A program made the translations under genes and the position numbers. The notes under the pieces were generated by a model that was not told the origin of the DNA, ran no database searches, and saw only the letters and a program-made list of their open reading frames with translations. Shown piece by piece: positions 1-14,570 of a stretch of DNA of 64,000 bases. Position 1 is the first letter of the stretch, and the number at the start of each line of letters is the position of its first letter. Source of the DNA: Nannocystis sp. RBIL2 (lineage in GTDB: Bacteria > Myxococcota_A > Polyangia > Nannocystales > Nannocystaceae); assembly GCF_026626745.1 (NCBI RefSeq), contig NZ_JAPNJW010000001.1:588311-652310 (forward strand). The letters run 5' to 3'.

Positions 1-2193
1 GCGATCCTCTACCGCGCCCGCAACGGCTTCGGCCACCGCCACGTCGCCCTCGCGGTGGTCGTCCAGCGAATGGTGGTACCCGAGGCCAGCGGCATCCTCT
101 TCACCGCCGACCCCGTCACCGGCCACCGCGGCACCCTCACCATCGACGCCGGCTACGGCCTCGGCGAGGCCCTCGTCAGCGGCCTCGTCACCGCCGACCT
201 CTACCGCGTCGATCGCCGCACCGGCGCGCTCGAGGAGCTGCGCGTCGGCGACAAGCAGGTCGCCATCCGCCCCGTGCCCGGCGGCGGCACGGTCACCGAA
301 GATGTCCCCGAGGACAGGCGGCACGCCCGCGTCCTCGACGACGCCGCAGTCGCCGCGCTGGCCGACCTCGGCGCCCGCGTCGAGGCCCACTACGGCGGCG
401 TCCCCCAGGACCTCGAGTGGTGCCTGGTGGGCCAACAATTGTGGCTCGTCCAGGCGCGCCCGATCACCTCGCTCTATCCATTGCCCGCGCCCGGCCCCGA
501 CGACGGCAGCGTCCACCTCTACCTCAGCTTCGGCCACGCCCAGAACATGATCGACCCGATCACGCCGATGGGCCGCGACCTGTGGCGCGCGGTGTTCCCG
601 TTCGGCAAGACCCGCCTCGACGAGATCCCGCGCGGCACGACGACGATGGTCGACGCGGGCAGCCGGATCTACCTCGACATCACGCCGGTGCTGCGCCTCG
701 CGCCGACGCGCCAGCTGATGTTCCGGATCTTGCGCGCGGTCTACCCCGACGTGGCAGCGCGCCTGGCGACTCTGGTCGACCGCCCCGAGATCCAGGCCGC
801 CGCCAAGCCCCGCCCCGCGGCTCTGCGCCTGGCCCTCGGGATGATGTGGCGCGTGCCGTTCGACCTCGCCTGGCTGCTGCTCGGCGCTCGCCTCGACACC
901 CAGACCGCCTGGGCCGACCGCATGGTCGCCGAGCGCGTCGCCGACTTCCGCGCCGCCGTCGAATCACAGCCGCCCGGCGTCGCCCGCCTGCGCGCCGCCC
1001 GGCACCAGCTCACCGGCGTCTTCCAGGTCATGCCGAAGATCGCCCCGCGCCTCGTCTCGGGCCTCTTGAGCCTCGGCCGCCTGCGCCGCCGCTTCGCCGA
1101 CACCCCGCACGCCGCCGACGTCGAGGCCCTCCAGCGCGGCCTCGTCGGCAACGTCACCACCGAGATGGACCTGCGCGTCGGCGACCTCGCCGACCTCGCG
1201 CGGCCCTACCCCGAGCTGCGCACCGCCCTCGAGCACGTCCGCCCCGGCGAGCTCCACCGCCTGCGCGCGCTCGCCGGCGGCCCCGCCTTCGTCGACGCCC
1301 TCGCCGCCTTCCTCGAGCGCTTCGGCATGCGCGGCCAGGCCGAGATCGACATCGGCCGCCCGCGCTGGGCCGACGACCCCGGCCTGCTGCTCACCAGCAT
1401 CCGCGGCATGGCGGACCACGGCGACGCCCCCGGCGCGCACCGCAGGCACTTCGCCAACCTGCAGGCCGAGGCCGAGGCCGCCGGCGGGCGCCTCGTCGCC
1501 GCCGCGCCCGCCCTGGCGCGCTGGATCGTCCGCCGCCAGGTCCAGTGCGTGCGCCACTGCCTCGGCGTCCGCGAGCACCCCAAGTTCCTCTTCATCCAGT
1601 GCTTCGAGCTCGTGCGCAGCAACGTCCTCGCCGCCGCCGACGCGCTCGTGCACGCCGGTCGCCTGGCCGCGCGCGGCGACGTGTGGTTCCTGACCTACGA
1701 CGAATTGCTCGAGCTCGCCGCCGACCCTTACGCCTTCGATCCGCGCCCGCGAATCACCGCTCGCCGCGCCGACTATGATCATTCGCGCCACCTGAGCCCC
1801 CCGCTGGTCGTCACCAGCGAGGGCGAGGTCCCCGCGCGACCTGTCCCGAAGGACCTGCCCGAAGGTGCCATCGCCGGCCTCGGCGCCAGCGCCGGCGTCG
1901 TCGAGGGCATCGCCCACGTCGTCCTCGATCCCGCGGCCCAGGTCCTGCGCGCCGGCGAGATCCTCGTCGCTCCCTACACCGATCCCGGCTGGACCCCGCT
2001 GTTCGTCCACGCCGCCGGCCTCGTGTGCGACGTCGGCGGCATGATGACCCACGGCTCCGTCATCGCCCGCGAGTACGGCATCCCCGCGGTCGTCGGCGTC
2101 GGCGACGGCACCAAGCGGCTCAAGTCGGGCCAGCGCCTGCGCGTCGACGGCAGCCGCGGCATCGTCGAGGTCCTCGCGGAGGCCGCCCCGTGA
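1..2193 (+). CDS. PEP-utilizing enzyme family protein (PEP synthase / rifampicin-phosphotransferase-like), 5'-partial
   Basis: The ORF is open to the window start. It begins with an ATP-grasp-like PEP/pyruvate-binding region (VAVVVQRMV, DLEWCLVGQQLWLVQARPIT). It ends with the PEP-utilising mobile His domain (GGMMTHGSVIAREYGIPAVVGVGDGT). This architecture is typical of rifampin phosphotransferase / PpsA-like proteins. Confidence 0.75.
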   Translation, partial: AILYRARNGFGHRHVALAVVVQRMVVPEASGILFTADPVTGHRGTLTIDAGYGLGEALVSGLVTADLYRVDRRTGALEELRVGDKQVAIRPVPGGGTVTEDVPEDRRHARVLDDAAVAALADLGARVEAHYGGVPQDLEWCLVGQQLWLVQARPITSLYPLPAPGPDDGSVHLYLSFGHAQNMIDPITPMGRDLWRAVFPFGKTRLDEIPRGTTTMVDAGSRIYLDITPVLRLAPTRQLMFRILRAVYPDVAARLATLVDRPEIQAAAKPRPAALRLALGMMWRVPFDLAWLLLGARLDTQTAWADRMVAERVADFRAAVESQPPGVARLRAARHQLTGVFQVMPKIAPRLVSGLLSLGRLRRRFADTPHAADVEALQRGLVGNVTTEMDLRVGDLADLARPYPELRTALEHVRPGELHRLRALAGGPAFVDALAAFLERFGMRGQAEIDIGRPRWADDPGLLLTSIRGMADHGDAPGAHRRHFANLQAEAEAAGGRLVAAAPALARWIVRRQVQCVRHCLGVREHPKFLFIQCFELVRSNVLAAADALVHAGRLAARGDVWFLTYDELLELAADPYAFDPRPRITARRADYDHSRHLSPPLVVTSEGEVPARPVPKDLPEGAIAGLGASAGVVEGIAHVVLDPAAQVLRAGEILVAPYTDPGWTPLFVHAAGLVCDVGGMMTHGSVIAREYGIPAVVGVGDGTKRLKSGQRLRVDGSRGIVEVLAEAAP

Positions 2194-2681
2194 AGCTCGC
2201 CCTCCTCCTGCTCGCCGCCGCCCTCGTCGTCCTCGGCGCCCTCGCGGCCGTCCAGGGTGTGTTCGTCGACGGCCTCCAGCGGTCCGGCCGGACCTTCCTG
2301 GCGATGATGCCGATCCTCGTCGTCGCCTTCCTGCTCGCCGGCATGGCCGAGGCCCTCCTCCCGACCGGCTTCGTCGAGCGCTGGCTGAGCGACGGCGCCG
2401 GCGTCCGCGGCCACCTCCTCGCGTGGGTGGCCGGCGCCCTCACCCCCGGCGGCGGCCTCCTCGGCATGCCCCTCGCGGCCGGCCTCCTCAAGGCCGGCGC
2501 CGGCATCGGCGTCCTCGTCACCTACCTCACCAGCATGGCCCTCCTCCCGCTCCTGCGCCTGCCCATGGAGCTCGGCATCTACGGCGGCCGCCTGGCCCTC
2601 CTGCGAATCGCCGCCTCCTGCCTCCTCCCCTTCGCCGCCGGCGCCACCGCCCACGTCATCGTCCGCCTGACGCGATTGTGA
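2190..2681 (+). CDS. small integral membrane permease-family protein
   Basis: The GTG start overlaps the stop of the upstream gene. The 163-aa product is highly hydrophobic with multiple predicted TM helices. Confidence 0.55.
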   Translation: MKLALLLLAAALVVLGALAAVQGVFVDGLQRSGRTFLAMMPILVVAFLLAGMAEALLPTGFVERWLSDGAGVRGHLLAWVAGALTPGGGLLGMPLAAGLLKAGAGIGVLVTYLTSMALLPLLRLPMELGIYGGRLALLRIAASCLLPFAAGATAHVIVRLTRL

Positions 2682-2720
2682 ATGTCTCATAGAACATGTC
2701 CAAGGAAACATGGACGATAG
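2682..2720. repeat. palindromic intergenic repeat cluster (ACATGTCC / ACATGGAC modules)
   Basis: Lies immediately after the permease stop. Sequence is aaTGTCTCAtagAACATGTCCaaggaaACATGGAC. It is a member of the dispersed GGACATGTCC family. Confidence 0.6.
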
Positions 2721-2912
2721 GACAGCACCCCACTCGGACCTGAGCACCCGCTCCGCCGGGCACGTGGCCTCCGGTGCGAGGACCACCACCGAGCGGCCTC
2801 TGGAGGAGTGAGCTCGGCGAGTCCCGCAGGGTGGCTCACGCGGACCGCCGCGACCGTCCGCATTTCCGATCGACGTCTGTCAGGCTTCCGCCGCGCCGGG
2901 CAACTCCCGGAC

Positions 2913-4403
2913 ATGCCCCTTCGCACGCCTTCGCTTCGCACCCTGCTCGGTTTCGCCTTCACCCCCGCGCTCCTGCTCGCGAGCGGCGCGGCCTGTGACG
3001 TCGAGCCCGAGGCCGACATCGACGAGCTCGCGGCAGACGACGAGATCGCGCCCCGCTCGCTGACCCTCGAGCCCAACGATCCGCTCTACCATTCGGGACA
3101 GAAGTGGCACTACGGCGCCATCTCCTTGCCCGAGGCCTGGTGGCTGACCACCGGCTCGCCCGCGGTCACCATCGCCATCGCCGACAGCGGCACGCTCCCT
3201 CACTCGGAGCTCACCTGGTCGAGCGGCTACGACTTCTTCGTCGGCGACCCCGACCCGACCGATCCGGGGGACTTTCACCACGGCATCCACGTGGCAGGCA
3301 CCCTCGCCGCGGCCGCGAACAACGGCGTCGGCGGCGCGGGCATCTGCTGGGGTTGCAAGCTCCGTCCGATCCGCGTCAAGCAATCCGGCGGCGGCGCCCA
3401 GGTCGGCGACCCCGGGATGAACGAGCCGACCACCACGCTGCTCGCCCGCGCGATCCGCTACGCGGCCGGCCTGCCGACCGACAACGGCCGAGGCGAGACG
3501 GTGCAGGCCAGCTCGCGCGCCGATGTCATCAACATCAGCATCGGCAACCTGGCGCAGCCGTGCCCGGCCGACCTCAAGGACGCCATCGACAAGGCCTCGG
3601 AGGCCGGCACCGTGGTGGTGGTCGCGGCGGGGAACGGCGACTCCGGGACCACCTGGCCGCCGAGCCCCGACTTCAACGCCTCCAATTATCTGTGGCCGAG
3701 GTGCCAGAACCCCGACCTGATCGTGGTCACCGCGGTCGACGCATTCGGCAACGCCGAGCCTTACGCCCTGCAGTCCAACCCCCTCGCCAAGTACCCCGGC
3801 ATCACGATCGCCGCCCCGGGCGGCTCGGCGGTGAACGGCCAGGCCGGCAACGGCGCCCTCCTCGGCTGCCCCTCCGATCCGACCCAAACCGGCACCCACG
3901 GCGTCGTGTCGACGTGGATCCCCTACGCGCAGACCGGCCCGCAGTGCCACCGCCACTGGGCCGGCACGTCGATGGCGGCGCCGCACGTGAGCGGCGTGGT
4001 CGGCCTGATGCGCGCCCGCAACCCCGCGCTGACGGCGTCGCAGATCAAGCAGATCCTCGTGAAGACTGCCAAGCCCATCCCGTGCACGAACTGCGGCGCC
4101 GGTATGGTCAATGCCTTCGGCGCCGTCCAGGCCTCGACCTTCACCCTGTCGATCACGTGTGAGTCGACCGGCGGCGGCGGCTATGCATGCACCTCGTCGC
4201 CGACCGGGCTCGGGCCGTGGACCGCCACCTGGCAGGGCGTCCTGAACGCCGCGGTCAACCCGGCCTACGCCAACAACCCCACGACCACCCACGGCACCTG
4301 CACCGTGAACACACAGGCGCGGGTGCGCGCGACCCTCACCGACGCGCTCGGCCGCACCGCGATCGCCGAGGACTCCTTCCTCTGCAGCCAGCTCCCGCCG
4401 TGA
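2913..4403 (+). CDS. S8 family subtilisin-like serine protease, lipoprotein
   Basis: A signal peptide plus lipobox (LLASGAAC) is present. The catalytic triad is seen in D (AIADSG), H (HGIHVAGT) and S (GTSMAAPHVSG). Confidence 0.85.
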   Translation: MPLRTPSLRTLLGFAFTPALLLASGAACDVEPEADIDELAADDEIAPRSLTLEPNDPLYHSGQKWHYGAISLPEAWWLTTGSPAVTIAIADSGTLPHSELTWSSGYDFFVGDPDPTDPGDFHHGIHVAGTLAAAANNGVGGAGICWGCKLRPIRVKQSGGGAQVGDPGMNEPTTTLLARAIRYAAGLPTDNGRGETVQASSRADVINISIGNLAQPCPADLKDAIDKASEAGTVVVVAAGNGDSGTTWPPSPDFNASNYLWPRCQNPDLIVVTAVDAFGNAEPYALQSNPLAKYPGITIAAPGGSAVNGQAGNGALLGCPSDPTQTGTHGVVSTWIPYAQTGPQCHRHWAGTSMAAPHVSGVVGLMRARNPALTASQIKQILVKTAKPIPCTNCGAGMVNAFGAVQASTFTLSITCESTGGGGYACTSSPTGLGPWTATWQGVLNAAVNPAYANNPTTTHGTCTVNTQARVRATLTDALGRTAIAEDSFLCSQLPP

Positions 4404-4404
4404 T

Positions 4405-4455
4405 GAGTCTCTAAGGACATGTCTATTTCAACATGTCCTCATGGACATACCTCTA
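4405..4455. repeat. palindromic intergenic repeat cluster (GGACATGTC modules)
   Basis: Sequence is TCTCTAAGGACATGTCtatttcaACATGTCCtcATGGACAT. It sits directly after the protease stop and abuts the left end of the IS630 element. Confidence 0.65.
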
Positions 4456-4569
4456 GTACAGCCTGCCCAAAGTTTTCCAGGGGTTCATGCGAGCTGCTCC
4501 CGTCCTGGATCCACCGCCAGCACGGTCTGGGCGTCGGAATAAGCGAGGCGCGAAAACGATCTCGTCGGT

Positions 4570-5676
4570 GTGCCAGCCCCGCGAGCGCAACGGCTTCGGG
4601 TGGCGCCTTCGGTCCGGGAGGAGCTGAAGGCGCTGGCTCGGAGTGGGCGCAGCGAGGCGCGCCTCGTGCTTCGGGCGAGGCTCGTGCTCCTCGCCGCCGA
4701 GGGTCACTCGAACCAGGAGATTGCGCGGAGATTGGGCTGCCACGTGGATACGGTGAGGGTGTGGCGTGGGCGCTTCGCGCGTGATGGGCGGCTCGTGACG
4801 CTCGAGGATCGTCCCCGAAGTGGGCGACCTCCTCGGGTATCGCCGGCGACGCGCTGCAAGCTCATCAAGCTCGCCTGTGACAAGCCTGCCAGGCATGGTC
4901 AACAGACTCGTTCGACATGGACATACGCGACGTTGGCGAGGCGCCTGCTTCAGGAGACAGGTATCGGGCTCAGCGTGTCCGAGGTGGGGCGAATCCTGCG
5001 CAACGAGGACTTTCGGCCGCACAAGATGAGGCTCTGGCTGCACAGCCCCGATCCCGATTTCTGCCGCAAAGTTCAGCGCATCTGCGACCTCTACCATCAT
5101 CCCCCAGACGGAGCTCACGTGCTCTGCGTCGACGAGAAGACCGGCATGCAGGCGCTCGGACGGAGATTTCCCAGCAAGCTCCCCGCGCCCGGTCGCGCGG
5201 GCCGTTTCGAGTTCGAGTACGTCCGCCGCGGTACCTGGTCGCTGTTCGCGGCCTTCGACATCCGCACCGGCGAGGTCCTCGGCGAGTGCAAGCCGCAACG
5301 ACGAGCCGAGGACCTCATGGACTTCATGGAGGGCCTTGCCCGCAAGTATCCTACCGGCCAGATCTACGTCGTCTGGGACAACCTCAACATCCACTACGAC
5401 GGTGCGGACTACCGTTGGACCCGCTTCAACCGGCGCCACGGCGACCGCTTTCACTTCGTGTACACGCCCATCCATGCCTCGTGGGTCAACCAGATCGAGA
5501 TCTGGTTCTCGCTACTGCAGCGCCGCGTCCTCCGCTACGCCGACTTTCCCTGCGCCGGAGCCATGCCCCGCGCCGTGATGAACTTCATCCGGCGCTGGAA
5601 CCGCGACGAAGCGCACCCGTTCAACTGGACCTTCCGCGGCCACTTCGTCCACACTCAGCGGCGGCACGCCGCATGA
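4570..5676 (+). CDS. IS630 family transposase (HTH + DDE_3 domain)
   Basis: N-terminal HTH (HSNQEIARRLGCHVDTVRVWR). DDE region motifs: DEKTGMQAL ... VVWDNLNIH ... WVNQIEIWF. Confidence 0.9.
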   Translation: MPAPRAQRLRVAPSVREELKALARSGRSEARLVLRARLVLLAAEGHSNQEIARRLGCHVDTVRVWRGRFARDGRLVTLEDRPRSGRPPRVSPATRCKLIKLACDKPARHGQQTRSTWTYATLARRLLQETGIGLSVSEVGRILRNEDFRPHKMRLWLHSPDPDFCRKVQRICDLYHHPPDGAHVLCVDEKTGMQALGRRFPSKLPAPGRAGRFEFEYVRRGTWSLFAAFDIRTGEVLGECKPQRRAEDLMDFMEGLARKYPTGQIYVVWDNLNIHYDGADYRWTRFNRRHGDRFHFVYTPIHASWVNQIEIWFSLLQRRVLRYADFPCAGAMPRAVMNFIRRWNRDEAHPFNWTFRGHFVHTQRRHAA

Positions 5677-5993
5677 GCCGTCCACGCACCACCCGCAACG
5701 CCGCTGCGAAGTCGGACGACGACGCTCGCGCTGTCGAGCAGTTCCTGCGCCAACACCAGGATCTCGCACACCTCCGCGTCCGCCATCGCGCCCCGCTCAT
5801 CACCCTCGAGTCCGGCCCCGCTGACGATCCGGTCCTCCACGCGCGCCTGCGCCGCCTCGCCGCCAACTTGTGGCAGCTGGAGATGGCCACCCACACCGGG
5901 CGCTGGGAACCAACCCCCTTCCGCGCCTCCCGCGAGGAGCTCCTCGAACTGCTCCTCGGAAACTTCGGCTGGACCCTCGCCGAGAGGGCCTAG
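5673..5993 (+). CDS. hypothetical protein encoded inside the IS630 element
   Basis: Its ATG overlaps the transposase stop in an ATGA arrangement. The 106-aa product shows non-random composition. It lies between the transposase and the right IR. Confidence 0.4.
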   Translation: MSRPRTTRNAAAKSDDDARAVEQFLRQHQDLAHLRVRHRAPLITLESGPADDPVLHARLRRLAANLWQLEMATHTGRWEPTPFRASREELLELLLGNFGWTLAERA

Positions 5994-6600: not shown

Positions 6601-7233
6601 TCACAGCTTGCTCCACTCCTCGGCGGGCGTCGGCGCGGGGGCCGTGGGCCAGTAGTAACGGTCGGGGCGCGCGGTCATGTCGAGGCGGAGCACGCCGGTC
6701 ACGGTGGCCCTGACGCCGCGGCGGGTGTTGTCGAGCGGGCGCGTGAGCTCGGAGCCGTCGGTCTTCACGTCGACGACCCGGCCGCCCTCGAAGGTCACGC
6801 GCATGGCAGTGTCGTACTCGTCGTTGCACTTCTCGGTGCCGGCGATCTGGTCGGGAAAGACCCGGCCGTCAGCGAGCGTGAGGTCGAACAGGAACCAGTT
6901 GTACTTGTTGGAGGCGCCGTAGCGGCAGTGCGTCACGACCTCGCGCACCTCGCCGAACCACAGACGGGCGTTGGCGGCGGCCTGGGGGATGATCCCGGGC
7001 CACCAGCTCGAGTCGAGCTCGCCCGTCTCGTTGCCGTGGCCCTTCTCGAGCCCGTCGATCCGCTCGTTGAACAGCGCCACGATCTTGGGGTTGGACGTAT
7101 CGCCGGGCATCTTCGGCGGATAAAACTGCGCCGGCAACTTCATGCTGCCAGTCATCACCAGCACCGCGCCACCGATCGCTATCACCGCGAGGCTGGCGAC
7201 GATGCCCACGACGATCTGCGTACCCTGCTTCAT
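6601..7233 (-). CDS. membrane-anchored hypothetical protein
   Basis: A GGAGG RBS lies 7 bp upstream of the ATG. N-terminal TM helix (IVVGIVASLAVIAIGGAVLV). The 210-aa product is otherwise non-repetitive. Confidence 0.7.
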   Translation of the reverse strand: MKQGTQIVVGIVASLAVIAIGGAVLVMTGSMKLPAQFYPPKMPGDTSNPKIVALFNERIDGLEKGHGNETGELDSSWWPGIIPQAAANARLWFGEVREVVTHCRYGASNKYNWFLFDLTLADGRVFPDQIAGTEKCNDEYDTAMRVTFEGGRVVDVKTDGSELTRPLDNTRRGVRATVTGVLRLDMTARPDRYYWPTAPAPTPAEEWSKL

Positions 7234-7354
7234 GAATCCTCCCCCCGTCCGGAGGCGGGAGAATAGTCAGCCGGGCGAAGCGGCGCCAGCGGCCCGGACG
7301 GGGCTATTTCGCCCGCCTGCGCGGCCTGCGGAGCTCTTTGGCGGCGCTCCCTCG

Positions 7355-7526
7355 CGCGACCATGTCCCAAAAGACATGTCCACATCGTCCTACCACGGGA
7401 CCGCGCCGGCTCGACGGGCCTCGGCGGAATCTGTCTTCCGGGACAGATACCGCCAATCGCCGCAACGGCCGCCTTTGGCGTGAGCGGTCTCTCGGCTCGG
7501 GATCGACATGACATGTCCATTGGGAC
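7355..7526. repeat. composite palindromic repeat cluster
   Basis: GACCATGTCCcaaaaGACATGTCC at 7355-7388. Perfect-arm palindrome ATCTGTCTTCCGGGACAGAT at 7429-7448. GACATGACATGTCCATTGGGAC at 7505-7526. Confidence 0.6.
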
Positions 7527-7541
7527 GGTCGATGGGCGCGC

Positions 7542-8348
7542 TCACGCCTCGCGCACGGTCCAGATCGCCAGCAGCGCCAGCGCGGCCGCCGGGACGGCGT
7601 GCGTCAGCGCCATGCGCGCCGCGGCGCGGACCCACGCGAGCTCCCCGGCCGCGCGGACGTCGAGCGTCTGCACCGCAGCCGCGACGGCGACGAGAACCGC
7701 CAGCACCAGCACGCCGACGAAACCGCATCGGAACCGCGGGCGGCCCGAGGTCGCGGTGAGCACGGCGATCGCCGGCGCGAACCACACCGCCGCCAGGTAC
7801 GACGCCCGGCTCAGCGTGCTGCCGCTGCCGAGCAGCCACGCGAGGCCGAAGGCCAGCGCAGTCACGGCCGCGCCCGCGACCGCGAGCGCCCGCCCGCGGC
7901 TCACCAGCGACGCGCACCACAGCAGCGTCGCGGTCACGCCGAGCGCGAGCGCGGTCGGGCGGCCGAGGACCGGCGTGAGCGCCGGCGTGAGCACATCGCT
8001 ATGCTCGACGGTGAGCCGCGTCGCGGGCTCCGTCACCAGAGTGCGCGCGACCGCGTCGACAGTGGGCTCGTCGGACAGCCCCGCGAAGTTCACCTGGCAG
8101 CGCTCCCCCGCTGCCTCCAGCGCGTACACGAGGTCCGGGTGGCGCGCCTGCAACACCGCGTCGACCTCTCGCGGATCGCAGCGGCCGTCCTCGGCCAGCG
8201 TCGCGAGTGACAGCATCGCCCCGCCCTCGAAGTCGAGCCCGATCGCATCGCCTCCGCGGGCGACGCTCACCAGCGCCGCGACGCTCACGCTCAGCCACGC
8301 GGCAGCGGCGAATGGATGCACCCGTCGACGTCTCGGCGAAGCGATCAC
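7542..8348 (-). CDS. polytopic membrane protein (hypothetical)
   Basis: The 268-aa ORF has 5 or more hydrophobic helices and sits between repeat clusters. Confidence 0.5.
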   Translation of the reverse strand: MIASPRRRRVHPFAAAAWLSVSVAALVSVARGGDAIGLDFEGGAMLSLATLAEDGRCDPREVDAVLQARHPDLVYALEAAGERCQVNFAGLSDEPTVDAVARTLVTEPATRLTVEHSDVLTPALTPVLGRPTALALGVTATLLWCASLVSRGRALAVAGAAVTALAFGLAWLLGSGSTLSRASYLAAVWFAPAIAVLTATSGRPRFRCGFVGVLVLAVLVAVAAAVQTLDVRAAGELAWVRAAARMALTHAVPAAALALLAIWTVREA

Positions 8349-8720
8349 GGCCCTCTGCTCACACTCGGCTCGCCATGAGCCATGGTCGCTTGACCATACG
8401 CCCTATCGACGGCGCTCACCATCGTGTCGCCATGTCCCGAGCGACAGCATGATGCCGAATGCATGCATGTGCGTCTCCGGCGAGGCCGGGGAGCGAAGAT
8501 GACCCGCCGGGCGAGCTGTGACGGCGGGACCGGACGATCTTGCTGCGACCCGGTGCAAGGCGATCGGCGCGAGAGAATCCGCGTCCAGCCGCGCCCTCGC
8601 CGAGCGCACAATCGGCGGCGGACATGGTAGCCAGGGCCTCGCCATGCACGACGACGCCCGGACGCGTACGCCCGTGAGATCGGGCGATCGGGGCATGGAT
8701 GCAGTCGCAGTGGGAGCGGA

Positions 8721-9806
8721 GTGAGCGTGAGCGGCGTGAGCGTGCTGCTCCTCCTCGGCGCGCTCGCGCAGGTCCCCGAGCCGCCCGCCGACCACGTGAC
8801 CTGGAGCGCTCCGGCACGGTGCCCTGGGCGGGATGCCCTGCTCGCCGAGGTGGTTGCCCGTCGAGGCCGCGCCCTCGAGCCCGGACAGGCGCGGATCGTC
8901 GGCCGCGCGACCGTCGTCGGGCCGCGCCGCTACCGGCTCGACCTCGACCTCGAAGTCCGCGGACGGCGCGACAGCCGGACCCTCTTCGCGCACAGCTGCG
9001 AGGCGCTGGTCGACGCGGCCGTCCTGGTCATCACGCTCGCCCTCGACGCCGACCGCGAGCCCGCCCCAGGCTCACCGGAGTCCCCCTCCTCGGAGCCGAC
9101 CCCGGACGCGACCGTGCCGGAGCCCGCCGCTCCGGTCGAACCCGCGCCGGAGCCCGCCGCGCTGCCCATCGCCGACGCTCCGCCGAGCACCGGCGCACCC
9201 GCGCCTTCCGGCCCCCTCGCTCCCACCCACGGGGCCGCCCCGGCACGCGAGCTCGCGCCGCCGATCCCGGCCCCGCGGCGCCGCCCCGGCGGCTTCCTCC
9301 GCCTCCACGGGCTCGCGGAGATCGGCGCCTTGCCCGGCCCGACCGGCGGCGTCGGGCTCGCCGGCGGCCTCCTGTGGAGCAGATTCCGCCTCGAGCTGCA
9401 CGCCACCTACCTGGCCCCGCGGACCGCCGACCGCTCGGGGACCGAGGTCCGCGCCTCTCTCGTCGCCGGCGCCGCGCTCGGCTGCGTCCGCCTGGGCGAC
9501 CGGCGCGTCTTCGAGCTCCCGCTGTGTCTCGGGCTCGAGGCCGGCGGCATTCCCCTGGCCGCCGACGGGCCCGTGGGGCACAAGGCCGCGGTCGGGCGGT
9601 GGCTCGCCGGCACCGTGGGCGTCGGCGCGGCCGTGCGCGTGCACCCGCGGGTCGCCCTGTTCGCCATGCTGCAGGGCCTCGCGGCGTTTCAGCGCGGCAC
9701 CTTCGTCGTCCGCAGGGGCGGGACCGACGTCGTCCTCTTCGACCCCGGCGTCGCCTCGGCCCGGCTCGCCCTCGGCGTCGAGGTGCGCCTCGGCGAGTCA
9801 CGGTGA
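8721..9806 (+). CDS. secreted hypothetical protein with Pro/Ala-rich linker and beta-rich C-terminal domain
   Basis: GTG start, signal-like N-terminus (VLLLLGALAQVP). It lies directly upstream of the ECF sigma gene and is codirectional with it. Confidence 0.5.
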   Translation: MSVSGVSVLLLLGALAQVPEPPADHVTWSAPARCPGRDALLAEVVARRGRALEPGQARIVGRATVVGPRRYRLDLDLEVRGRRDSRTLFAHSCEALVDAAVLVITLALDADREPAPGSPESPSSEPTPDATVPEPAAPVEPAPEPAALPIADAPPSTGAPAPSGPLAPTHGAAPARELAPPIPAPRRRPGGFLRLHGLAEIGALPGPTGGVGLAGGLLWSRFRLELHATYLAPRTADRSGTEVRASLVAGAALGCVRLGDRRVFELPLCLGLEAGGIPLAADGPVGHKAAVGRWLAGTVGVGAAVRVHPRVALFAMLQGLAAFQRGTFVVRRGGTDVVLFDPGVASARLALGVEVRLGESR

Positions 9807-9852
9807 GACTATTGAGGGGCATCCGGAGACAACACTGAGGCCGGCGACCGCC

Positions 9853-10995
9853 ATGCACTCCGAACCCGAGGACGACGCGCGCAAACGCGCCTTTCGTGAG
9901 CTCTACCGCAGCGAATTCGCGTTCGTCTGGACCGTCGCGCGCCGGCTCGGCGTCCCGCCGCCGCTGGTCGAGGACGCGGTCCAGGACGTGTTTCTCACCG
10001 CCTACCGCCGCCTCGACCAGGTCCGCTTCGAGGTCTCCGCGCGCGCCTGGCTGCACGGCGTGACCCGCAGGATCGCCTCGCGTTACCACCGCTCGGCCGA
10101 GCGCCGGTCGCGGCGGCTCGCTGCGGTCGCCGCCGTCTCGCCCGGCCCCGCCGACCCGCCGCAGGAGCGCGTCGACTCCGCGGAGCAGCTCGAGCGGCTC
10201 CTCGCCCAACTCGGCGCGAACATCCGCGCCGCCTTCGAGATGTCCGAGCTGTTCGGCATGAGCGGCCCCGAGATCGCCAGCGAGCTGGGGATCCCCGTCA
10301 AAACCGTCTACTCGCGGGTTCGGCTGGCGCGCGAGCAGCTCATCCGCGAGTTCGGCGAGGCCCGACTCGAGCGCGAGTTCGCCGGCGCACGCAAGCGCGA
10401 CGCCCCGCCGCCCGCCGCCGCCCAGCGCTCGTGGGCCGCCCTGGCCCCGGGCCTGATGTCGACCCACGCCGGCGTCGGCCTCGCCACCCTCGTCACCGCC
10501 CGCGCGGCCGTCATGACCACCCTCGTGCTCGCCGCGGGCCTCGTCGCCGTCACCGGGTCGCGCCAGCCGGCGGCCGCTCGGCCCGGCGCTCCCCCGTCCG
10601 ACGCCGCGCCGGTCGCCGTGAGCGTCGCCGAGCCGGCTGCTCCGGCCGTCGTCGTCGAGGCGGCCTCGCCCCCGCCGGCGCCGCCGACTCCGCCGCCCGT
10701 CGCCTCGCCGCGGATGGAGGATGCCGACCGCCTGGCCGCCGAGGTCGCGGTGCTGGAGCGCGCCCAGGCCGAGCTCGCGCGCGGCGACCTCGAGGCAGTG
10801 CAGGCGCGCCTCGAGGAGCACGCGCGCCGCTTCCCCGCCGGCGCCTTCGGCGACCTGCGCGGCGTCCTTGCGATCGAGCTCCTGTGCCGCGGCGGCCGGC
10901 GGGACGAGGCCGCCGAGCGGGCAGCCGCCCTGGTCGTCGCCTACCCGCGCTCCGCCGCCGCGCAGCGGTTCGAAAATTATTCGTGCCCCGAGTGA
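9853..10995 (+). CDS. ECF (sigma-70 family) sigma factor with fused C-terminal TM + TPR-like extension
   Basis: Region 2 (DAVQDVFLTAYRRLDQ) and region 4 (MSELFGMSGPEIASELGIPVKTVYSRVRLAREQL) are both recognisable. No stop follows the sigma domain. The ORF continues through a TM helix (GVGLATLVTARAAVMTTLVLAAGLVAV), a Pro-rich segment and a helical TPR-like C-terminus. Confidence 0.65.
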   Translation: MHSEPEDDARKRAFRELYRSEFAFVWTVARRLGVPPPLVEDAVQDVFLTAYRRLDQVRFEVSARAWLHGVTRRIASRYHRSAERRSRRLAAVAAVSPGPADPPQERVDSAEQLERLLAQLGANIRAAFEMSELFGMSGPEIASELGIPVKTVYSRVRLAREQLIREFGEARLEREFAGARKRDAPPPAAAQRSWAALAPGLMSTHAGVGLATLVTARAAVMTTLVLAAGLVAVTGSRQPAAARPGAPPSDAAPVAVSVAEPAAPAVVVEAASPPPAPPTPPPVASPRMEDADRLAAEVAVLERAQAELARGDLEAVQARLEEHARRFPAGAFGDLRGVLAIELLCRGGRRDEAAERAAALVVAYPRSAAAQRFENYSCPE

Positions 10996-11045
10996 GACGA
11001 GTCGGTCGAGGCGGAGACTAGCAGCAGTAGAGCGCCCGCCTGTTC

Positions 11046-11732
11046 ATGCACCCCGGCATCCGCGTCGCATCTCCCTGTATTCGCGCCGCGTTCGCGGCTG
11101 CGCTCGCGCTCGCCACATCGGCCTGCACGTATCCGAAGTTCCTCGGCGAGGAGCCGACCGACGGCGGATCCGCCACAGAAGACATCGTCACCGCGAGCGC
11201 GTCGAGCCAGGGCTCCGCCTCGAGCACCGGCGTGGTGACCGGCGACGCGACCTCGAGCACCGGCGTGGTGACCGGCGACGAGACCGCGACCGACGCGACC
11301 ACCTGCGCGACCGGCTGCCCGGGTGGCGCTCCGGGCGGGCCGCTCGAGAAGTGCCTCTCGGAGTTCAACGAGGAGTACTGGTGCGAGTGCACCGAGGGCG
11401 ACAGCCACCCGTGCGGCGACGGCCGCGTCAGCTTCTGCCTGGCCCAGGACGCCGTCGTCTTCACCCACACCCGGTGGACGCCCTGCGGCACCTGCGAGCC
11501 CGGGCAGCAGCGGGCCTGTGACGCCCCCGCCGGGCCGGGCCGGCAATTCTGCAACCTCCACGACCTGTGGATCGACGACATCGAAGACCTGCCGACCCTC
11601 GAGTGGGGCGCCTGCCTCCGCGAGCAGGACATCGCCTGCGAGCCGGGTGAATCGAGGCCGTGCGAATCCGGCATCGCCATCGAGCAGTGCGACGTCGATC
11701 TGCAGGGCATGCCTCACTGGACCGGCTGCTAG
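11046..11732 (+). CDS. cysteine-rich lipoprotein
   Basis: Lipobox LATSAC, Thr/Ser-rich linker, 16 or more Cys in the C-terminal domain. Confidence 0.65.
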   Translation: MHPGIRVASPCIRAAFAAALALATSACTYPKFLGEEPTDGGSATEDIVTASASSQGSASSTGVVTGDATSSTGVVTGDETATDATTCATGCPGGAPGGPLEKCLSEFNEEYWCECTEGDSHPCGDGRVSFCLAQDAVVFTHTRWTPCGTCEPGQQRACDAPAGPGRQFCNLHDLWIDDIEDLPTLEWGACLREQDIACEPGESRPCESGIAIEQCDVDLQGMPHWTGC

Positions 11733-11783
11733 CTCGCGCTGGCGCCCAATACGTGCTTCGTCCTTTCGACCGATCGAGTACCC

Positions 11784-12497
11784 ATGCGATATGTAGAGCA
11801 TCTCAGAAGCGCCCACGTGAAGACCATTTACCTCGGGTTCGCCGTCGTCCTGGCGTCGGCGGCCTGCGGCGACAGCGGGGGCAATGGCAGCACGTCGAGC
11901 CCGGGCACCGGCGGGGACACGAACCCGGGCCCGGGCAGCAGCGACGGCGAGACGATCCCGCAGGCCGACTGCACCTCGCGCTGCGAGGCCCACGCGACCG
12001 CGTGCGACGTGCCCGAGGCCATGGTCTCACAGCTCTGCGGCAACATCTGCGCCGATTCGCTCACCGAGGCCGCCATTCAATGCATCGAGGCGCTGCCTTG
12101 CACGGCCGGCGAGGACGAGCTCGACGAGTGCACGAGCAAGAACCCGCCGGGCGGGTCCAGCGAATCGGACGGCCCCACCGACACTGGAGGCCCCTCCGCC
12201 GGAGGATTCGGCGACCCCTGCACGTGCGGCATGACGAGCGGCGAGTGGGAGTGCTCCGGCTCGAACATCTGCGCCACGGGCCTCGTGTGCGTCGGCGTCG
12301 GCAACGACGCCGGCACCTGCAGGGGCCCTGTCTGCTGCGACAGCGAGAGCGATTGCGCCGAGAGGCTCGGCAAGCAGGCGAACTGCGACACCGGCCAGAA
12401 GTGCGCCTGCCAGGGCGGCAACCTCGAGTGCGTCGGCGAGGCCTGCACCTGCGAAGGCGGCGCCCTCACGAATCGCGGCCTCTGCTACCCCGAGTGA
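11784..12497 (+). CDS. cysteine-rich lipoprotein
   Basis: Lipobox LASAAC, Gly/Ser linker, about 26 Cys in the C-terminal domain. Confidence 0.65.
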   Translation: MRYVEHLRSAHVKTIYLGFAVVLASAACGDSGGNGSTSSPGTGGDTNPGPGSSDGETIPQADCTSRCEAHATACDVPEAMVSQLCGNICADSLTEAAIQCIEALPCTAGEDELDECTSKNPPGGSSESDGPTDTGGPSAGGFGDPCTCGMTSGEWECSGSNICATGLVCVGVGNDAGTCRGPVCCDSESDCAERLGKQANCDTGQKCACQGGNLECVGEACTCEGGALTNRGLCYPE

Positions 12498-12637
12498 CCG
12501 GAGCGACGACCGAGGAGAAATCGCAACGGCGCGATTCGATCGTCGCCGACCCGTCGCACGAGTCGGCGCATGTGCGGTCATTTCGACCAATACTCGCGCT
12601 CTGCAGCCTGCAGACTCGCATGCTTTGAAAGTGGTGT

Positions 12638-13105
12638 ATGAAACACGCAGCTTCACGCGGGCTCGGCCTTCTCATGCTGTTCGCTCTGACGATCGCGTCC
12701 GGGCCGGCTTGCTTCCTCCCACCGCCGATCGTGCGAGGACCGGACGGACGGCCGACCTTTCGCGGGGAGTACCTGATTCACCCGCAGGCGGGCCCGTACT
12801 TCTGTTTCGGCGGGATCACGCCGCTCGGCGCAGAGACGTCCCGCTGCCAGGGGACCCAGGACACCTGCGCCGGCCTGCTCGACACCTGGCAAGAGGCGGG
12901 GCAGAGTCTGCTCAGCGGCTGTCACCCGACGTCGACCATCTACTGCACCCAGGGCTTCAGTAACAACTGGATGTGCGCGCAGACCCTGGAGGCGTGCGAG
13001 GTCGAACGCGCGCGTCGCGTCCAAGAATACGCGAGCGGGCAGGATCTCGGGTACGCGACCTGCACCGAGGTCGACGAGTCCAAAGTGTTCCCGCCGCCGA
13101 CATAG
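12638..13105 (+). CDS. cysteine-rich lipoprotein / secreted protein
   Basis: Signal peptide LFALTIASGPAC, followed by a Cys-rich 155-aa product. Confidence 0.55.
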   Translation: MKHAASRGLGLLMLFALTIASGPACFLPPPIVRGPDGRPTFRGEYLIHPQAGPYFCFGGITPLGAETSRCQGTQDTCAGLLDTWQEAGQSLLSGCHPTSTIYCTQGFSNNWMCAQTLEACEVERARRVQEYASGQDLGYATCTEVDESKVFPPPT

Positions 13106-13310
13106 ACGTGCCCCGGAGCGGGCTCCGACGAAGCGCCTCTCGCAGAGGCGAGGGCGTCGTCGCCGACATCAGGGCTCCGCTCCCGCTCACCGCGCCCTTC
13201 ACCTGTCCCATCGGCCATCTCATCGGGAGCGAGACCATCCGCGATCGCCGGCCGAGGCGCGCAGCTTCGCGCGCACCGACGCCGCCCCTGTCATGCAGTA
13301 CCATCGCGCG

Positions 13311-14570
13311 ATGTCTCGCCTCGAAGCGCTCCTCCTGTGTGCCCCCTTGCTGGCAGCCTGCGGCGACAGCGGGCGGCCCCAGGACACCGCGAACGCCACC
13401 CTGACCACCAGCGGCCCCGGCCCGACCTCGACCGTCGACCCCACCGACGGCGCCGTCACCGACGGCACCACCACCGGCGAGCCGACCACCTCCACCACCT
13501 CGACTTCGGGCCTTCCCAAGCTCGACCTCGGCGCCCAGCCGGACCAGGGTGAGATGGCCACCACCGGCGAGTGTGCCGCCCAGATGTTGGAGCCGCAGGT
13601 CCAGTCGGTCGGCGTCGACATCGTCGTCGTCGTCGACACCTCCAACTCCATGCAGGCTGCGATCGCCGCCGTCGAGGCCAGCATCAACAACGATTTTGCC
13701 GCCATCCTCGGCGCCAGCAACGTCGATTACCGCGTCATCGTCATGGGCGACTACCCGCCCGGCGAGCAGCTCGACATCTGCATCAGCGCCCCGCTCTCCG
13801 GCACCGACTGCAACCCCCCACCGGCGGTCCCGGCGGTCACCGAGCGCTACAAGCACTACGACGGCATCACCGGCTCGGGCGCCTTCCTCGCCAACATCCT
13901 CGCCTGGTACACCACCCCCGATCCGCACGGCCTCGCCCCGAACGGCTACCGCGACTTCCTGCGCGACGGCACGCGCAAGGTCATCCTCGCCATGACCGAC
14001 GGCACCAGCGCCTCGGGCACCGACGCCGACGGCGACGCCTTCGACGCCGCCCTGCTCGCCCTCGACCCGCCGCACTTCGGCACCCCCGGCGCGCGCGACT
14101 ACGTCTTCCACACCATCATCACCATGGGCGCCAACAACCCGCCCGACGCCCCGTGGTTGCCGGGCGACCCGCTGCAGGGCGAGGGCGACTCGATCCAGCG
14201 GGTCAGCGTCATCAGCGGTGGTTGGCGCTTCCCGCTGTCGCAGACCGACGCCTTCGACGTCCTCTTCCAGGAGATCGCCAAGGACGTCGTCATGACCACC
14301 CCGATCGCCTGCTCCTTCCCGATCCCCGAGCCGCCGATGGGAACCATCGATCCGAACACCATCGAGATCGACTACCAGGTCGGCGGCGTCCCGCCGGTCA
14401 AGGCATTTCATCAGGTCGTCGACCTCGCCGCCTGCGAGGCCGACGCCTTCTACATCGAGAACGCCACGGTCATCCTCTGCCCCGACGCCTGCGGCCAGGT
14501 GCAGGCCGACCCGGCCGCCAAGCTCGACGTCCGCTACGGCTGCGACGTCGGCTTCGATCCTGCTGGTTGA
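13311..14570 (+). CDS. von Willebrand factor A (vWA) domain lipoprotein
   Basis: Lipobox LLAAC, Thr-rich linker. A MIDAS-like DxSxS motif is present (VVVVDTSNSM). Confidence 0.7.
   Translation: MSRLEALLLCAPLLAACGDSGRPQDTANATLTTSGPGPTSTVDPTDGAVTDGTTTGEPTTSTTSTSGLPKLDLGAQPDQGEMATTGECAAQMLEPQVQSVGVDIVVVVDTSNSMQAAIAAVEASINNDFAAILGASNVDYRVIVMGDYPPGEQLDICISAPLSGTDCNPPPAVPAVTERYKHYDGITGSGAFLANILAWYTTPDPHGLAPNGYRDFLRDGTRKVILAMTDGTSASGTDADGDAFDAALLALDPPHFGTPGARDYVFHTIITMGANNPPDAPWLPGDPLQGEGDSIQRVSVISGGWRFPLSQTDAFDVLFQEIAKDVVMTTPIACSFPIPEPPMGTIDPNTIEIDYQVGGVPPVKAFHQVVDLAACEADAFYIENATVILCPDACGQVQADPAAKLDVRYGCDVGFDPAG

Follow-up and report, generated by a model that had tools for sequence, protein, structure and literature searches.

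We analysed a 64,000-nucleotide stretch of the genome of Nannocystis sp. RBIL2 (contig NZ_JAPNJW010000001.1, positions 588,311 to 652,310 of the forward strand; this whole stretch is called the window, and coordinates are counted from its first letter). The subject is the gene at 9853..10995, which encodes an extracytoplasmic function (ECF) sigma factor continued by a membrane-spanning extension. The fusion is real and conserved: it joins a sigma factor to a partner protein that more distant loci encode separately, directly downstream of the sigma gene. The stand-alone partner is likely an anti-sigma factor, judging from its gene position, translational coupling and single-pass layout. We hold with moderate confidence that the fused product would act as a single-chain sigma/anti-sigma membrane sensor activated by proteolytic release. 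Its parts are listed here; aa stands for amino acids, TPR for tetratricopeptide repeat, pLDDT for the predicted local distance difference test score of AlphaFold2, and A1 for an alignment of 62 sequences of the fused family.

9853..10995, + strand: the whole open reading frame (ORF), ECF sigma plus single-pass anti-sigma-like extension, 380 aa plus stop
9901..10104, + strand: sigma region 2, aa 17-84 (Pfam PF04542, E 4.9e-10; AlphaFold2 pLDDT >90)
10183..10341, + strand: sigma region 4, aa 111-163 (Pfam PF08281, Sigma70_r4_2, E 3.9e-14)
10357..10455, + strand: two cytoplasmic helices, aa 169-183 and 187-201, which may bind the sigma core as an anti-sigma element (A1 conservation; AlphaFold2 pLDDT 83-92; hhalign)
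10462..10557, + strand: predicted transmembrane helix, aa 204-235 (Kyte-Doolittle maximum; AlphaFold2 helix)
10558..10719, + strand: Pro/Ala-rich spacer, aa 236-289, length-variable, predicted to be disordered and periplasmic (composition; pLDDT 50-62)
10720..10992, + strand: C-terminal domain of TPR-like helices, aa 290-380, in which C345 (10885-10887) and C378 (10984-10986) make up the conserved Cys pair (AlphaFold2 pLDDT 93-98)

The ORF starts with ATG at 9853 and ends with TGA at 10993-10995, and its 380 codons, translated from the window, encode six parts if sigma regions 2 and 4 of the core are counted separately, the others being the two short helices, the hydrophobic helix, the spacer and the TPR-like domain. 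A sequence-only reading of this DNA had described an ECF sigma factor running on into an extension of roughly 200 aa. Translation of 9853-10995 bears out that no stop codon separates region 4 from the extension, which spans aa 168-380 and is 213 aa long. The high G+C content keeps the sigma frame open from 8833 onward, about 1 kb 5' of the true start, where it overlaps the upstream gene in another frame; the N-termini of homologues are consistent with the start at 9853. The G+C content of the window is 0.65-0.81 across 7000-14000, so that long spurious ORFs occur in every frame. Opposite-strand ORFs of 300-600 aa near the sigma gene are typical artefacts of such DNA and could mislead automatic gene calling.

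Both sigma regions named in the earlier reading were recovered. PF04542, PF08281 and PF07638 all exceed their gathering thresholds, and TIGR02937 (sigma70-ECF, NCBIfam) scores 66.8 bits against a cut-off of 42.9. Scans of the sigma protein with Pfam and NCBIfam gave no match to region 3 or region 1.1. The protein therefore has regions 2 and 4 only, above curated thresholds, as ECF (group 4) members of the sigma-70 family do. Among sigma factors of solved structure, CnrH (4cxf_A, E 6e-20) is the nearest in sequence. The sigma core is strongly conserved in A1, and an AlphaFold2 model made with this alignment has a mean pLDDT of 83, with the core predicted confidently.

The extension also occurs as a separate protein. 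Among 1.84 billion cluster representatives, a profile of its C-terminal domain (A2) matched 23,138 at E <= 1e-3 and 4,208 at E <= 1e-10. Among the 104 top matches of at least 200 aa, 31 carry Sigma70_r4_2, that is, are fused; the remainder are 225-330 aa long and have no sigma domain. The stand-alone form is a widespread, unannotated myxobacterial protein of about 230-370 aa that is matched end to end by the extension. It has about 40 N-terminal residues (consensus M..LS..AR.L....R....P.....R.RV...L), a hydrophobic helix, a low-complexity spacer and the domain with the Cys pair. When the linker of the fusions (profile A5) was aligned by hhalign with the N-termini of the stand-alone proteins (A4), the two matched over 35 colinear columns with a probability of 85.6 % and an E of 5.6e-6.

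The gene order around the stand-alone partners tells the same story. In five independent split loci, namely L011/12, L014, L015 (a metagenome-assembled genome, MAG, of Sandaracinaceae), L016 (a Myxococcota MAG) and L017 (Nannocystis exedens), the order is X (a gene for a predicted outer-membrane protein, described below), ECF sigma (177-200 aa) and partner (244-372 aa), and the sigma and partner ORFs overlap by 4-13 nucleotides (nt). A profile of the fused family divides cleanly in hmmsearch: the stand-alone sigmas match its positions 6-176 (E 1e-43 to 1e-47), and the proteins encoded directly downstream match its positions 175-378 (E 1e-17 to 1e-29). The window protein is thus a sigma factor and a complete downstream partner joined head to tail, which supports the earlier interpretation of a sigma/anti-sigma fusion. 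In N. exedens, X, sigma and partner (438, 191 and 372 aa) lie split at 2066-5119 of FOMX01000057.1, with an 8-nt overlap. This species also has several fused paralogues, so that fused and split forms coexist in one genome. The fusion probably arose from an overlapping split gene pair of this kind, for which a small indel in the overlapping ORFs would have been enough.

The earlier reading had asked for a comparison of split and fused orthologues. The close orthologues are all fused, and so are many paralogues, with one exception (P0009, below). The split relatives are distant, their sigma being about 39 % identical. The contrary picture, split orthologues together with evidence of an indel at this place, is not what was found.

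The question of an indel nevertheless has to be asked of the window itself, since the fused frame could have been made by an assembly or sequencing frameshift joining two genes. The overlapping ORFs of the split relatives, which one indel could fuse, would fit such an origin, as would the frameshifted copies in some Nannocystis assemblies (P0009, L002). This explanation is effectively refuted. G+C at the third codon position is 0.93 over the sigma ORF frame and 0.88-1.00 in every 120-nt window, with position 2 always the lowest, as expected of one frame along the whole ORF. A protein homologue search gave 171 matches, and the counts of homologues given here rest on the best 120 of these. More than 100 are full-length in the same fused frame, with 97-100 % query coverage, 41-92 % identity and, in nearly all, a length of 353-449 aa. 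These independent sequences represent several species of Nannocystis, MAGs of Myxococcales and a large number of metagenomes, and the linker at the junction is itself conserved. An identical protein (P0001, 100 %) is found in Nannocystis sp. ILAH1, where it is annotated only as 'sigma-70 family RNA polymerase sigma factor'. There are several fused paralogues per Nannocystis genome (P0001, P0012, P0051 and P0115 in ILAH1; three loci in N. radixulma), and a more distant fused relative occurs in Paraliomyxa. An artificial fusion, which the sequence-only reading had wished to see excluded, can therefore be set aside.

Among the best 120 of the 171 matches, the exceptions to the fused architecture (P0009, P0062, P0107, P0110) look frameshifted or truncated. 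P0009, from N. pusilla, continues after aa ~240 in the +1 frame (in the window, too, this frame is open), and this looks like a frameshift in that N. pusilla genome. In N. pusilla Na p29 (L002), the orthologues of X (4832-5952) and of the downstream lipoprotein gene (7196-7872) each appear in two tblastn segments; P0009 is listed on a contig other than L002. The broken N. pusilla copies look like frameshift errors or pseudogenes, unlike the intact copy of the window. The window holds no second copy of the module that a scan could find. A scan of contigs with the single fused protein found only four close Nannocystis loci, with the Polyangiaceae outside its view.

The segment that joins the sigma core to the membrane helix is as conserved as the core. 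W194 is invariant, and R180, P185, P186, R192, P199 and L201 are present in at least 90 % of the A1 sequences. AlphaFold2 predicts helices at 169-183, 187-201 and 204-235. Two short helices of together fewer than 50 aa thus stand directly before the membrane helix, the layout of class II (CnrY-like) anti-sigma factors, and the stand-alone partners have the same two-helix-then-membrane-helix layout. CnrY inhibits CnrH by two short helices, the first on sigma4 and the second on sigma2, followed by a membrane helix (PMC7406223). The layout of aa 169-235 is the same, CnrH is the nearest solved sigma, and the CnrH-CnrY complex is the best structural match. In Foldseek, the modelled arrangement of sigma2 and sigma4 matches CnrH-CnrY (4cxf) with a TM-score (template-modelling score) of 0.60, SigW-RsiW with 0.57-0.58 and RpoE-NepR with 0.51-0.53, at a root-mean-square deviation (rmsd) of 6-7 A, whereas RNA-polymerase-bound sigmas fit only at an rmsd of ~26 A. 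The compact arrangement in the model is a weak hint of auto-inhibition. CnrY differs in being encoded on its own and in having only a very small periplasmic portion, which binds CnrX, and the linker of the fused protein has no sequence similarity to CnrY: searches with A4 and A5 against all PDB chain sequences found no relationship to CnrY or NccY.

Beyond the linker, the only hydrophobic stretch in the extension has a Kyte-Doolittle 19-residue maximum of 1.89 at aa 213-231, within the AlphaFold2 helix 204-235 and with the family consensus R.AVATTL..AG in A1. The single transmembrane helix named in the earlier reading is thus supported as a prediction. The spacer that follows, also foreseen there as Pro-rich, has 16 Pro and 15 Ala in 54 residues. 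It varies in sequence as well as in length, from 30 to 88 aa in A1, and is apparently much longer, judging by sequence and total length, in homologues of 473-547 aa (P0008, P0010, P0014).

The C-terminal domain of about 90 aa is predicted by AlphaFold2 to form four helices and a short fifth at aa 290-371, arranged as two helix-turn-helix pairs. The peptide that the earlier reading had singled out as TPR-like (ELARGDLEAV...AAAL) is aa 307-360. Its helical nature was borne out by the model. The TPR label has a weaker footing in the window sequence, where TPR_14 (E 0.12, below threshold) is the only Pfam or NCBIfam trace across aa 168-380; in relatives the same domain matches TPR_14 (26/104), YfiO/BamD (22/104) and TPR_6 (7/104). 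A profile of the domain matched BamD weakly in the PDB (E 0.016). E297, C345, A353, S367 and C378 are invariant in A1. The Cys pair is near-invariant, being present in 116 of the best 120 homologues and spaced by 33 residues in 92 of the 117 counted, while the first 240 residues are free of Cys in 90 of the 120. The window protein has no Cys in aa 1-344. A C345-C378 disulfide probably locks the domain, which would lie in the periplasm.

The fused gene has a conserved neighbour upstream, gene X:

8721..9806, + strand: gene X, 361 aa, conserved upstream partner (AlphaFold2 pLDDT 85; Foldseek matches to barrels; conservation by profile and tblastn)

X lies at -1 in the fused loci, with orthologues in L001 and L002, paralogues in L003 and L004, and distant relatives in L005, L007 and L009. 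A profile of the X family also matches the -1 proteins of the split loci L011/12, L014, L015, L016 and L017 (E 3e-23 to 6e-50). The protein has a signal-peptide-like N-terminus, an alpha/beta domain (aa 26-110, predicted as beta-alpha-beta-beta-beta-alpha), a Pro-rich linker (aa 111-188, disordered in the AlphaFold2 model) and an all-beta domain (aa 190-357). W28, P31, C34, C93, C255 and W294 are invariant in the family alignment. X has no Pfam match; two of its relatives are named 'Outer membrane protein beta-barrel domain-containing protein' in UniRef. In Foldseek, the all-beta domain is matched best by the OmpA transmembrane domain, OmpX, Ail, NspA and OmpW (TM-scores normalised to the target 0.65-0.74, E 1e-7 to 1e-4). 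X is therefore predicted to be an 8-stranded outer-membrane beta-barrel with a tethered periplasmic domain. In 8-stranded outer-membrane barrels both termini are periplasmic. The N-terminal domain of X would therefore hang in the periplasm on a long tether, as a counterpart to the TPR-like domain on its spacer. The homologue search found no database protein 100 % identical to X, the best being 82 % identical, from N. pusilla. The adjacent sigma has an exact match in ILAH1, so that X may be uncalled or differently started in the ILAH1 annotation.

These features bear on the topology of the fused protein. The hydrophobic helix, the confinement of the Cys pair to the C-terminal domain, the matches of this domain to periplasmic TPR families and the outer-membrane nature predicted for X all suggest an N-in/C-out protein with a periplasmic C-terminus. 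It is also conceivable, if very unlikely, that the hydrophobic segment does not span the membrane and that the protein is wholly cytoplasmic, its TPR-like tail folding back on the sigma core as in ECF42. The helix is Ala-rich and contains an Arg, its Kyte-Doolittle value is only 1.89, and ECF42 sigmas do have cytoplasmic TPR extensions (PMC7826278). Such a fold would leave several features without a place: the long, disordered, variable-length Pro-rich spacer between core and tail, the invariant Cys pair in the tail only, the resemblance of the tail to periplasmic TPR families, and a conserved partner predicted to be an outer-membrane barrel. In the stand-alone homologues, moreover, this hydrophobic helix comes after about 40 aa, as is typical of single-pass proteins.

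With an N-in/C-out topology, the protein would have the layout of a sigma/anti-sigma hybrid, in which a cytosolic sigma, a membrane span and a periplasmic domain follow one another in colinear sequence, here as predicted from the modelled helix and hydrophobicity. To our knowledge, IutY is the only hybrid of this type that has been dissected experimentally. IutY of Pseudomonas putida (ECF243) is a sigma/anti-sigma hybrid processed by sequential Prc and RseP proteolysis (PMC5411451; reviewed in PMC8999054). Like IutY, the Nannocystis protein would combine in one chain a cytosolic ECF sigma, one span and a periplasmic regulatory domain, and would have an outer-membrane partner. IutY differs in having a FecR-type anti-sigma and a 22-stranded TonB-dependent transducer in cell-surface signalling. 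The Nannocystis fusion has instead a two-helix cytoplasmic segment, a TPR-like periplasmic module of about 90 aa and, as partner, a predicted 8-stranded barrel with a tethered domain; Pfam and NCBIfam show no FecR domain, and X resembles OmpA/OmpX rather than a TonB-dependent protein.

By analogy with IutY, the mechanism that we favour would run as follows. At rest, the sigma domain (the N-terminal 168 aa) would be held at the inner membrane, where the two-helix segment probably masks sigma2 and sigma4 in cis in the manner of CnrY. Helix 204-235 would cross the inner membrane, and the Pro/Ala spacer would put the TPR-like domain in the periplasm. X, co-transcribed with the sigma gene, would reach into the same compartment, and its tethered domain would interact with the TPR-like domain or shield it. 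An envelope signal sensed through X would alter this contact. The periplasmic part would then be trimmed, a site-2 protease would cut inside the membrane helix, and the freed sigma domain would bind RNA polymerase.

Several observations weigh against this mechanism. The proposed membrane helix is Ala-rich and only moderately hydrophobic, and the Arg within it is R216. No recognised anti-sigma domain was found in the extension with Pfam or NCBIfam, and profile searches of the PDB with A4 and A5 (E <= 10) gave chance matches only and no anti-sigma factor, CnrY included. AlphaFold2 tends to give free ECF sigmas a compact state, and for this reason the 'closed' model carries little weight. Since the stand-alone partner bears no annotation beyond 'hypothetical protein', its anti-sigma role is itself deduced from gene order. 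Neither a protease gene nor a cleavage motif was identified. A shared bipartite motif (4-mer, 16-20 nt gap, 4-mer), sought upstream of X in 10 loci, was not above shuffled controls.

Some of these points would suit a different role of the extension, that of a required positive or sensory module and not of an inhibitor removed by proteolysis. The sigma might then work while anchored, like ToxR and CadC. This we consider unlikely. There are analogies for it: FecR is required for FecI activity, and the extensions of ECF41 and ECF42 are required for their sigmas. No anti-sigma domain is detected in the extension, and the strong conservation of the juxtamembrane linker would also suit an activating contact; ECF42 extensions, moreover, are listed under protein interaction and not proteolysis (PMC8999054). 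In the split loci, on the other side, the partner is a membrane protein with a gene of its own, placed where anti-sigma genes classically lie. A sigma factor also has to associate with core RNA polymerase and reach promoters, and we know of no membrane-anchored sigma factor that is active. Finally, the sole hybrid studied by experiment, IutY, is released by proteolysis (PMC5411451).

Proteolytic release thus remains the reading that we prefer. It could be carried further, although only tentatively and with a good deal of doubt. The fused sigma and X might form a compact trans-envelope device, in which the periplasmic domain of X docks onto the disulfide-locked TPR-like tip and the sigma factor itself serves as sensor in the inner membrane. 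This would amount to surface signalling without a TonB-dependent transducer and with a new two-helix class of anti-sigma factor. Each Nannocystis genome would then have many specific paralogous channels of this kind, in split and fused versions across Myxococcota.

Among the published ECF groups, the closest is probably ECF220, going by its description. In the ECF classification 2.0 (10.1101/2019.12.11.873521), ECF220 is a myxobacterial group with an extension of 0-400 aa that lacks a Pfam domain. Its subgroup 1 is given there as having about one transmembrane helix, a conserved C-terminal Cys and membrane proteins at -1 and +1, and a conserved promoter motif was not found for the group. The window protein agrees with this description in its extension without a Pfam domain, its one predicted transmembrane helix, its C-terminal Cys, the membrane proteins at -1 and +1 and the lack of a shared promoter motif across loci. 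The taxonomic range is different. ECF220 is recorded from the Polyangiaceae, a range drawn from only 11 reference-genome proteins, with WP_061622786.1 of Sorangium cellulosum as exemplar (Casas-Pastor et al. 2021), whereas the named matches here are Nannocystis, Paraliomyxa and unclassified Myxococcales MAGs, and the window belongs to the Nannocystaceae. As described there, ECF220 is also purely computational and has no proposed mechanism. In our literature search, ECF220 was mentioned only in the reclassification paper and in one review table.

Other groups share parts of the architecture. For ECF52/SCO4117 of Streptomyces coelicolor, and also for ECF48 and ECF53, proteolytic activation has been predicted (PMC5826349, PMC8999054), and a review extends the IutY route to ECF48, ECF52 and ECF53 (PMC8999054). 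ECF52 resembles the Nannocystis protein in that its ECF sigma is followed by a transmembrane region, then by an extracytoplasmic stretch rich in Pro and, at the C-terminus, by a sensory domain. It differs in being actinobacterial and in having a zinc-finger (ZAS) anti-sigma and a carbohydrate-binding domain. The Nannocystis linker has no Cys or His zinc motif: aa 1-344 contain no Cys with which to form HxxxCxxC, and Pfam shows no carbohydrate-binding domain. ECF42 shares a TPR-type C-terminal extension on an ECF core, but its extension of ~200 aa is cytoplasmic and has no membrane helix (PMC7826278), whereas here a smaller module lies beyond helix and spacer. ECF270 and ECF276 include myxobacterial sigmas to which a zinc-finger anti-sigma is fused or with which it is paired; these groups were considered and rejected, the zinc motif being absent here.

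Two further elements lie on either side of X and the sigma gene:

8619..8652, + strand: conserved non-coding block CGGACATGGTAGCCAGGGCCTCGCCATGCACGAC, 34 nt, ~70-100 nt upstream of X, a candidate promoter or operator of the X-sigma operon
11046..11732, + strand: downstream Cys-rich lipoprotein-like gene, 228 aa, partly conserved at +1 (tblastn), of uncertain membership in the system

The block at 8619-8652 has an imperfect inverted repeat, ACATGG-N17-CCATGC, and is found at a single place in the window. The orthologous loci L001 and L002 have it in identical or almost identical form, and the paralogous L003 keeps it despite diverged flanks; it is absent from the more distant loci. A scan of 8300-11200 for consensus promoters and terminators gave nothing. 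Downstream, the product of 11046..11732 is found by tblastn at +1 in L001, L002 and the paralogous L003 (44 % identity); it is not at +1 in L004, L005, L007 or L009, where other lipoprotein-like genes are present. It is the first of four co-oriented genes after the sigma gene (11046-11732, 11784-12497, 12638-13105 and 13293-14570, all on the + strand) whose products have lipoprotein-like N-termini. The first two are Cys-rich and have no Pfam match, and only the first also adjoins the paralogous sigma of L003. All four may be part of the regulon.

Proteins of this general kind, in which an ECF sigma continues into a regulatory extension that spans the membrane, are already known. As far as the literature surveyed shows, three things are new. 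First, the whole of a very widespread, unannotated stand-alone partner, with its minimal two-helix cytoplasmic part, is present in the extension. Second, split and fused forms exist within one genus. Third, both forms are tied to a conserved small protein predicted to be an outer-membrane barrel. A sigma factor fused to its own membrane-spanning regulator is the simplest possible transmembrane transcription switch, and the Nannocystis family provides a second, structurally different example beside IutY, with a minimal two-helix element, a very small periplasmic sensor and a small conserved partner. Since split and fused versions coexist within the genus, the effects of fusion on stoichiometry, noise and single-use behaviour are directly testable, and another question opened is how a two-helix segment masks a sigma factor in cis. 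A likely role as anti-sigma partners follows for 'hypothetical' myxobacterial proteins (23,138 cluster representatives with the C-terminal domain), and a likely role follows for the unannotated outer-membrane X family too. The small modular parts could serve as orthogonal sensors in synthetic biology. The fusion itself will not surprise specialists; the three-part module and its natural split and fused pairs make a useful, testable system.

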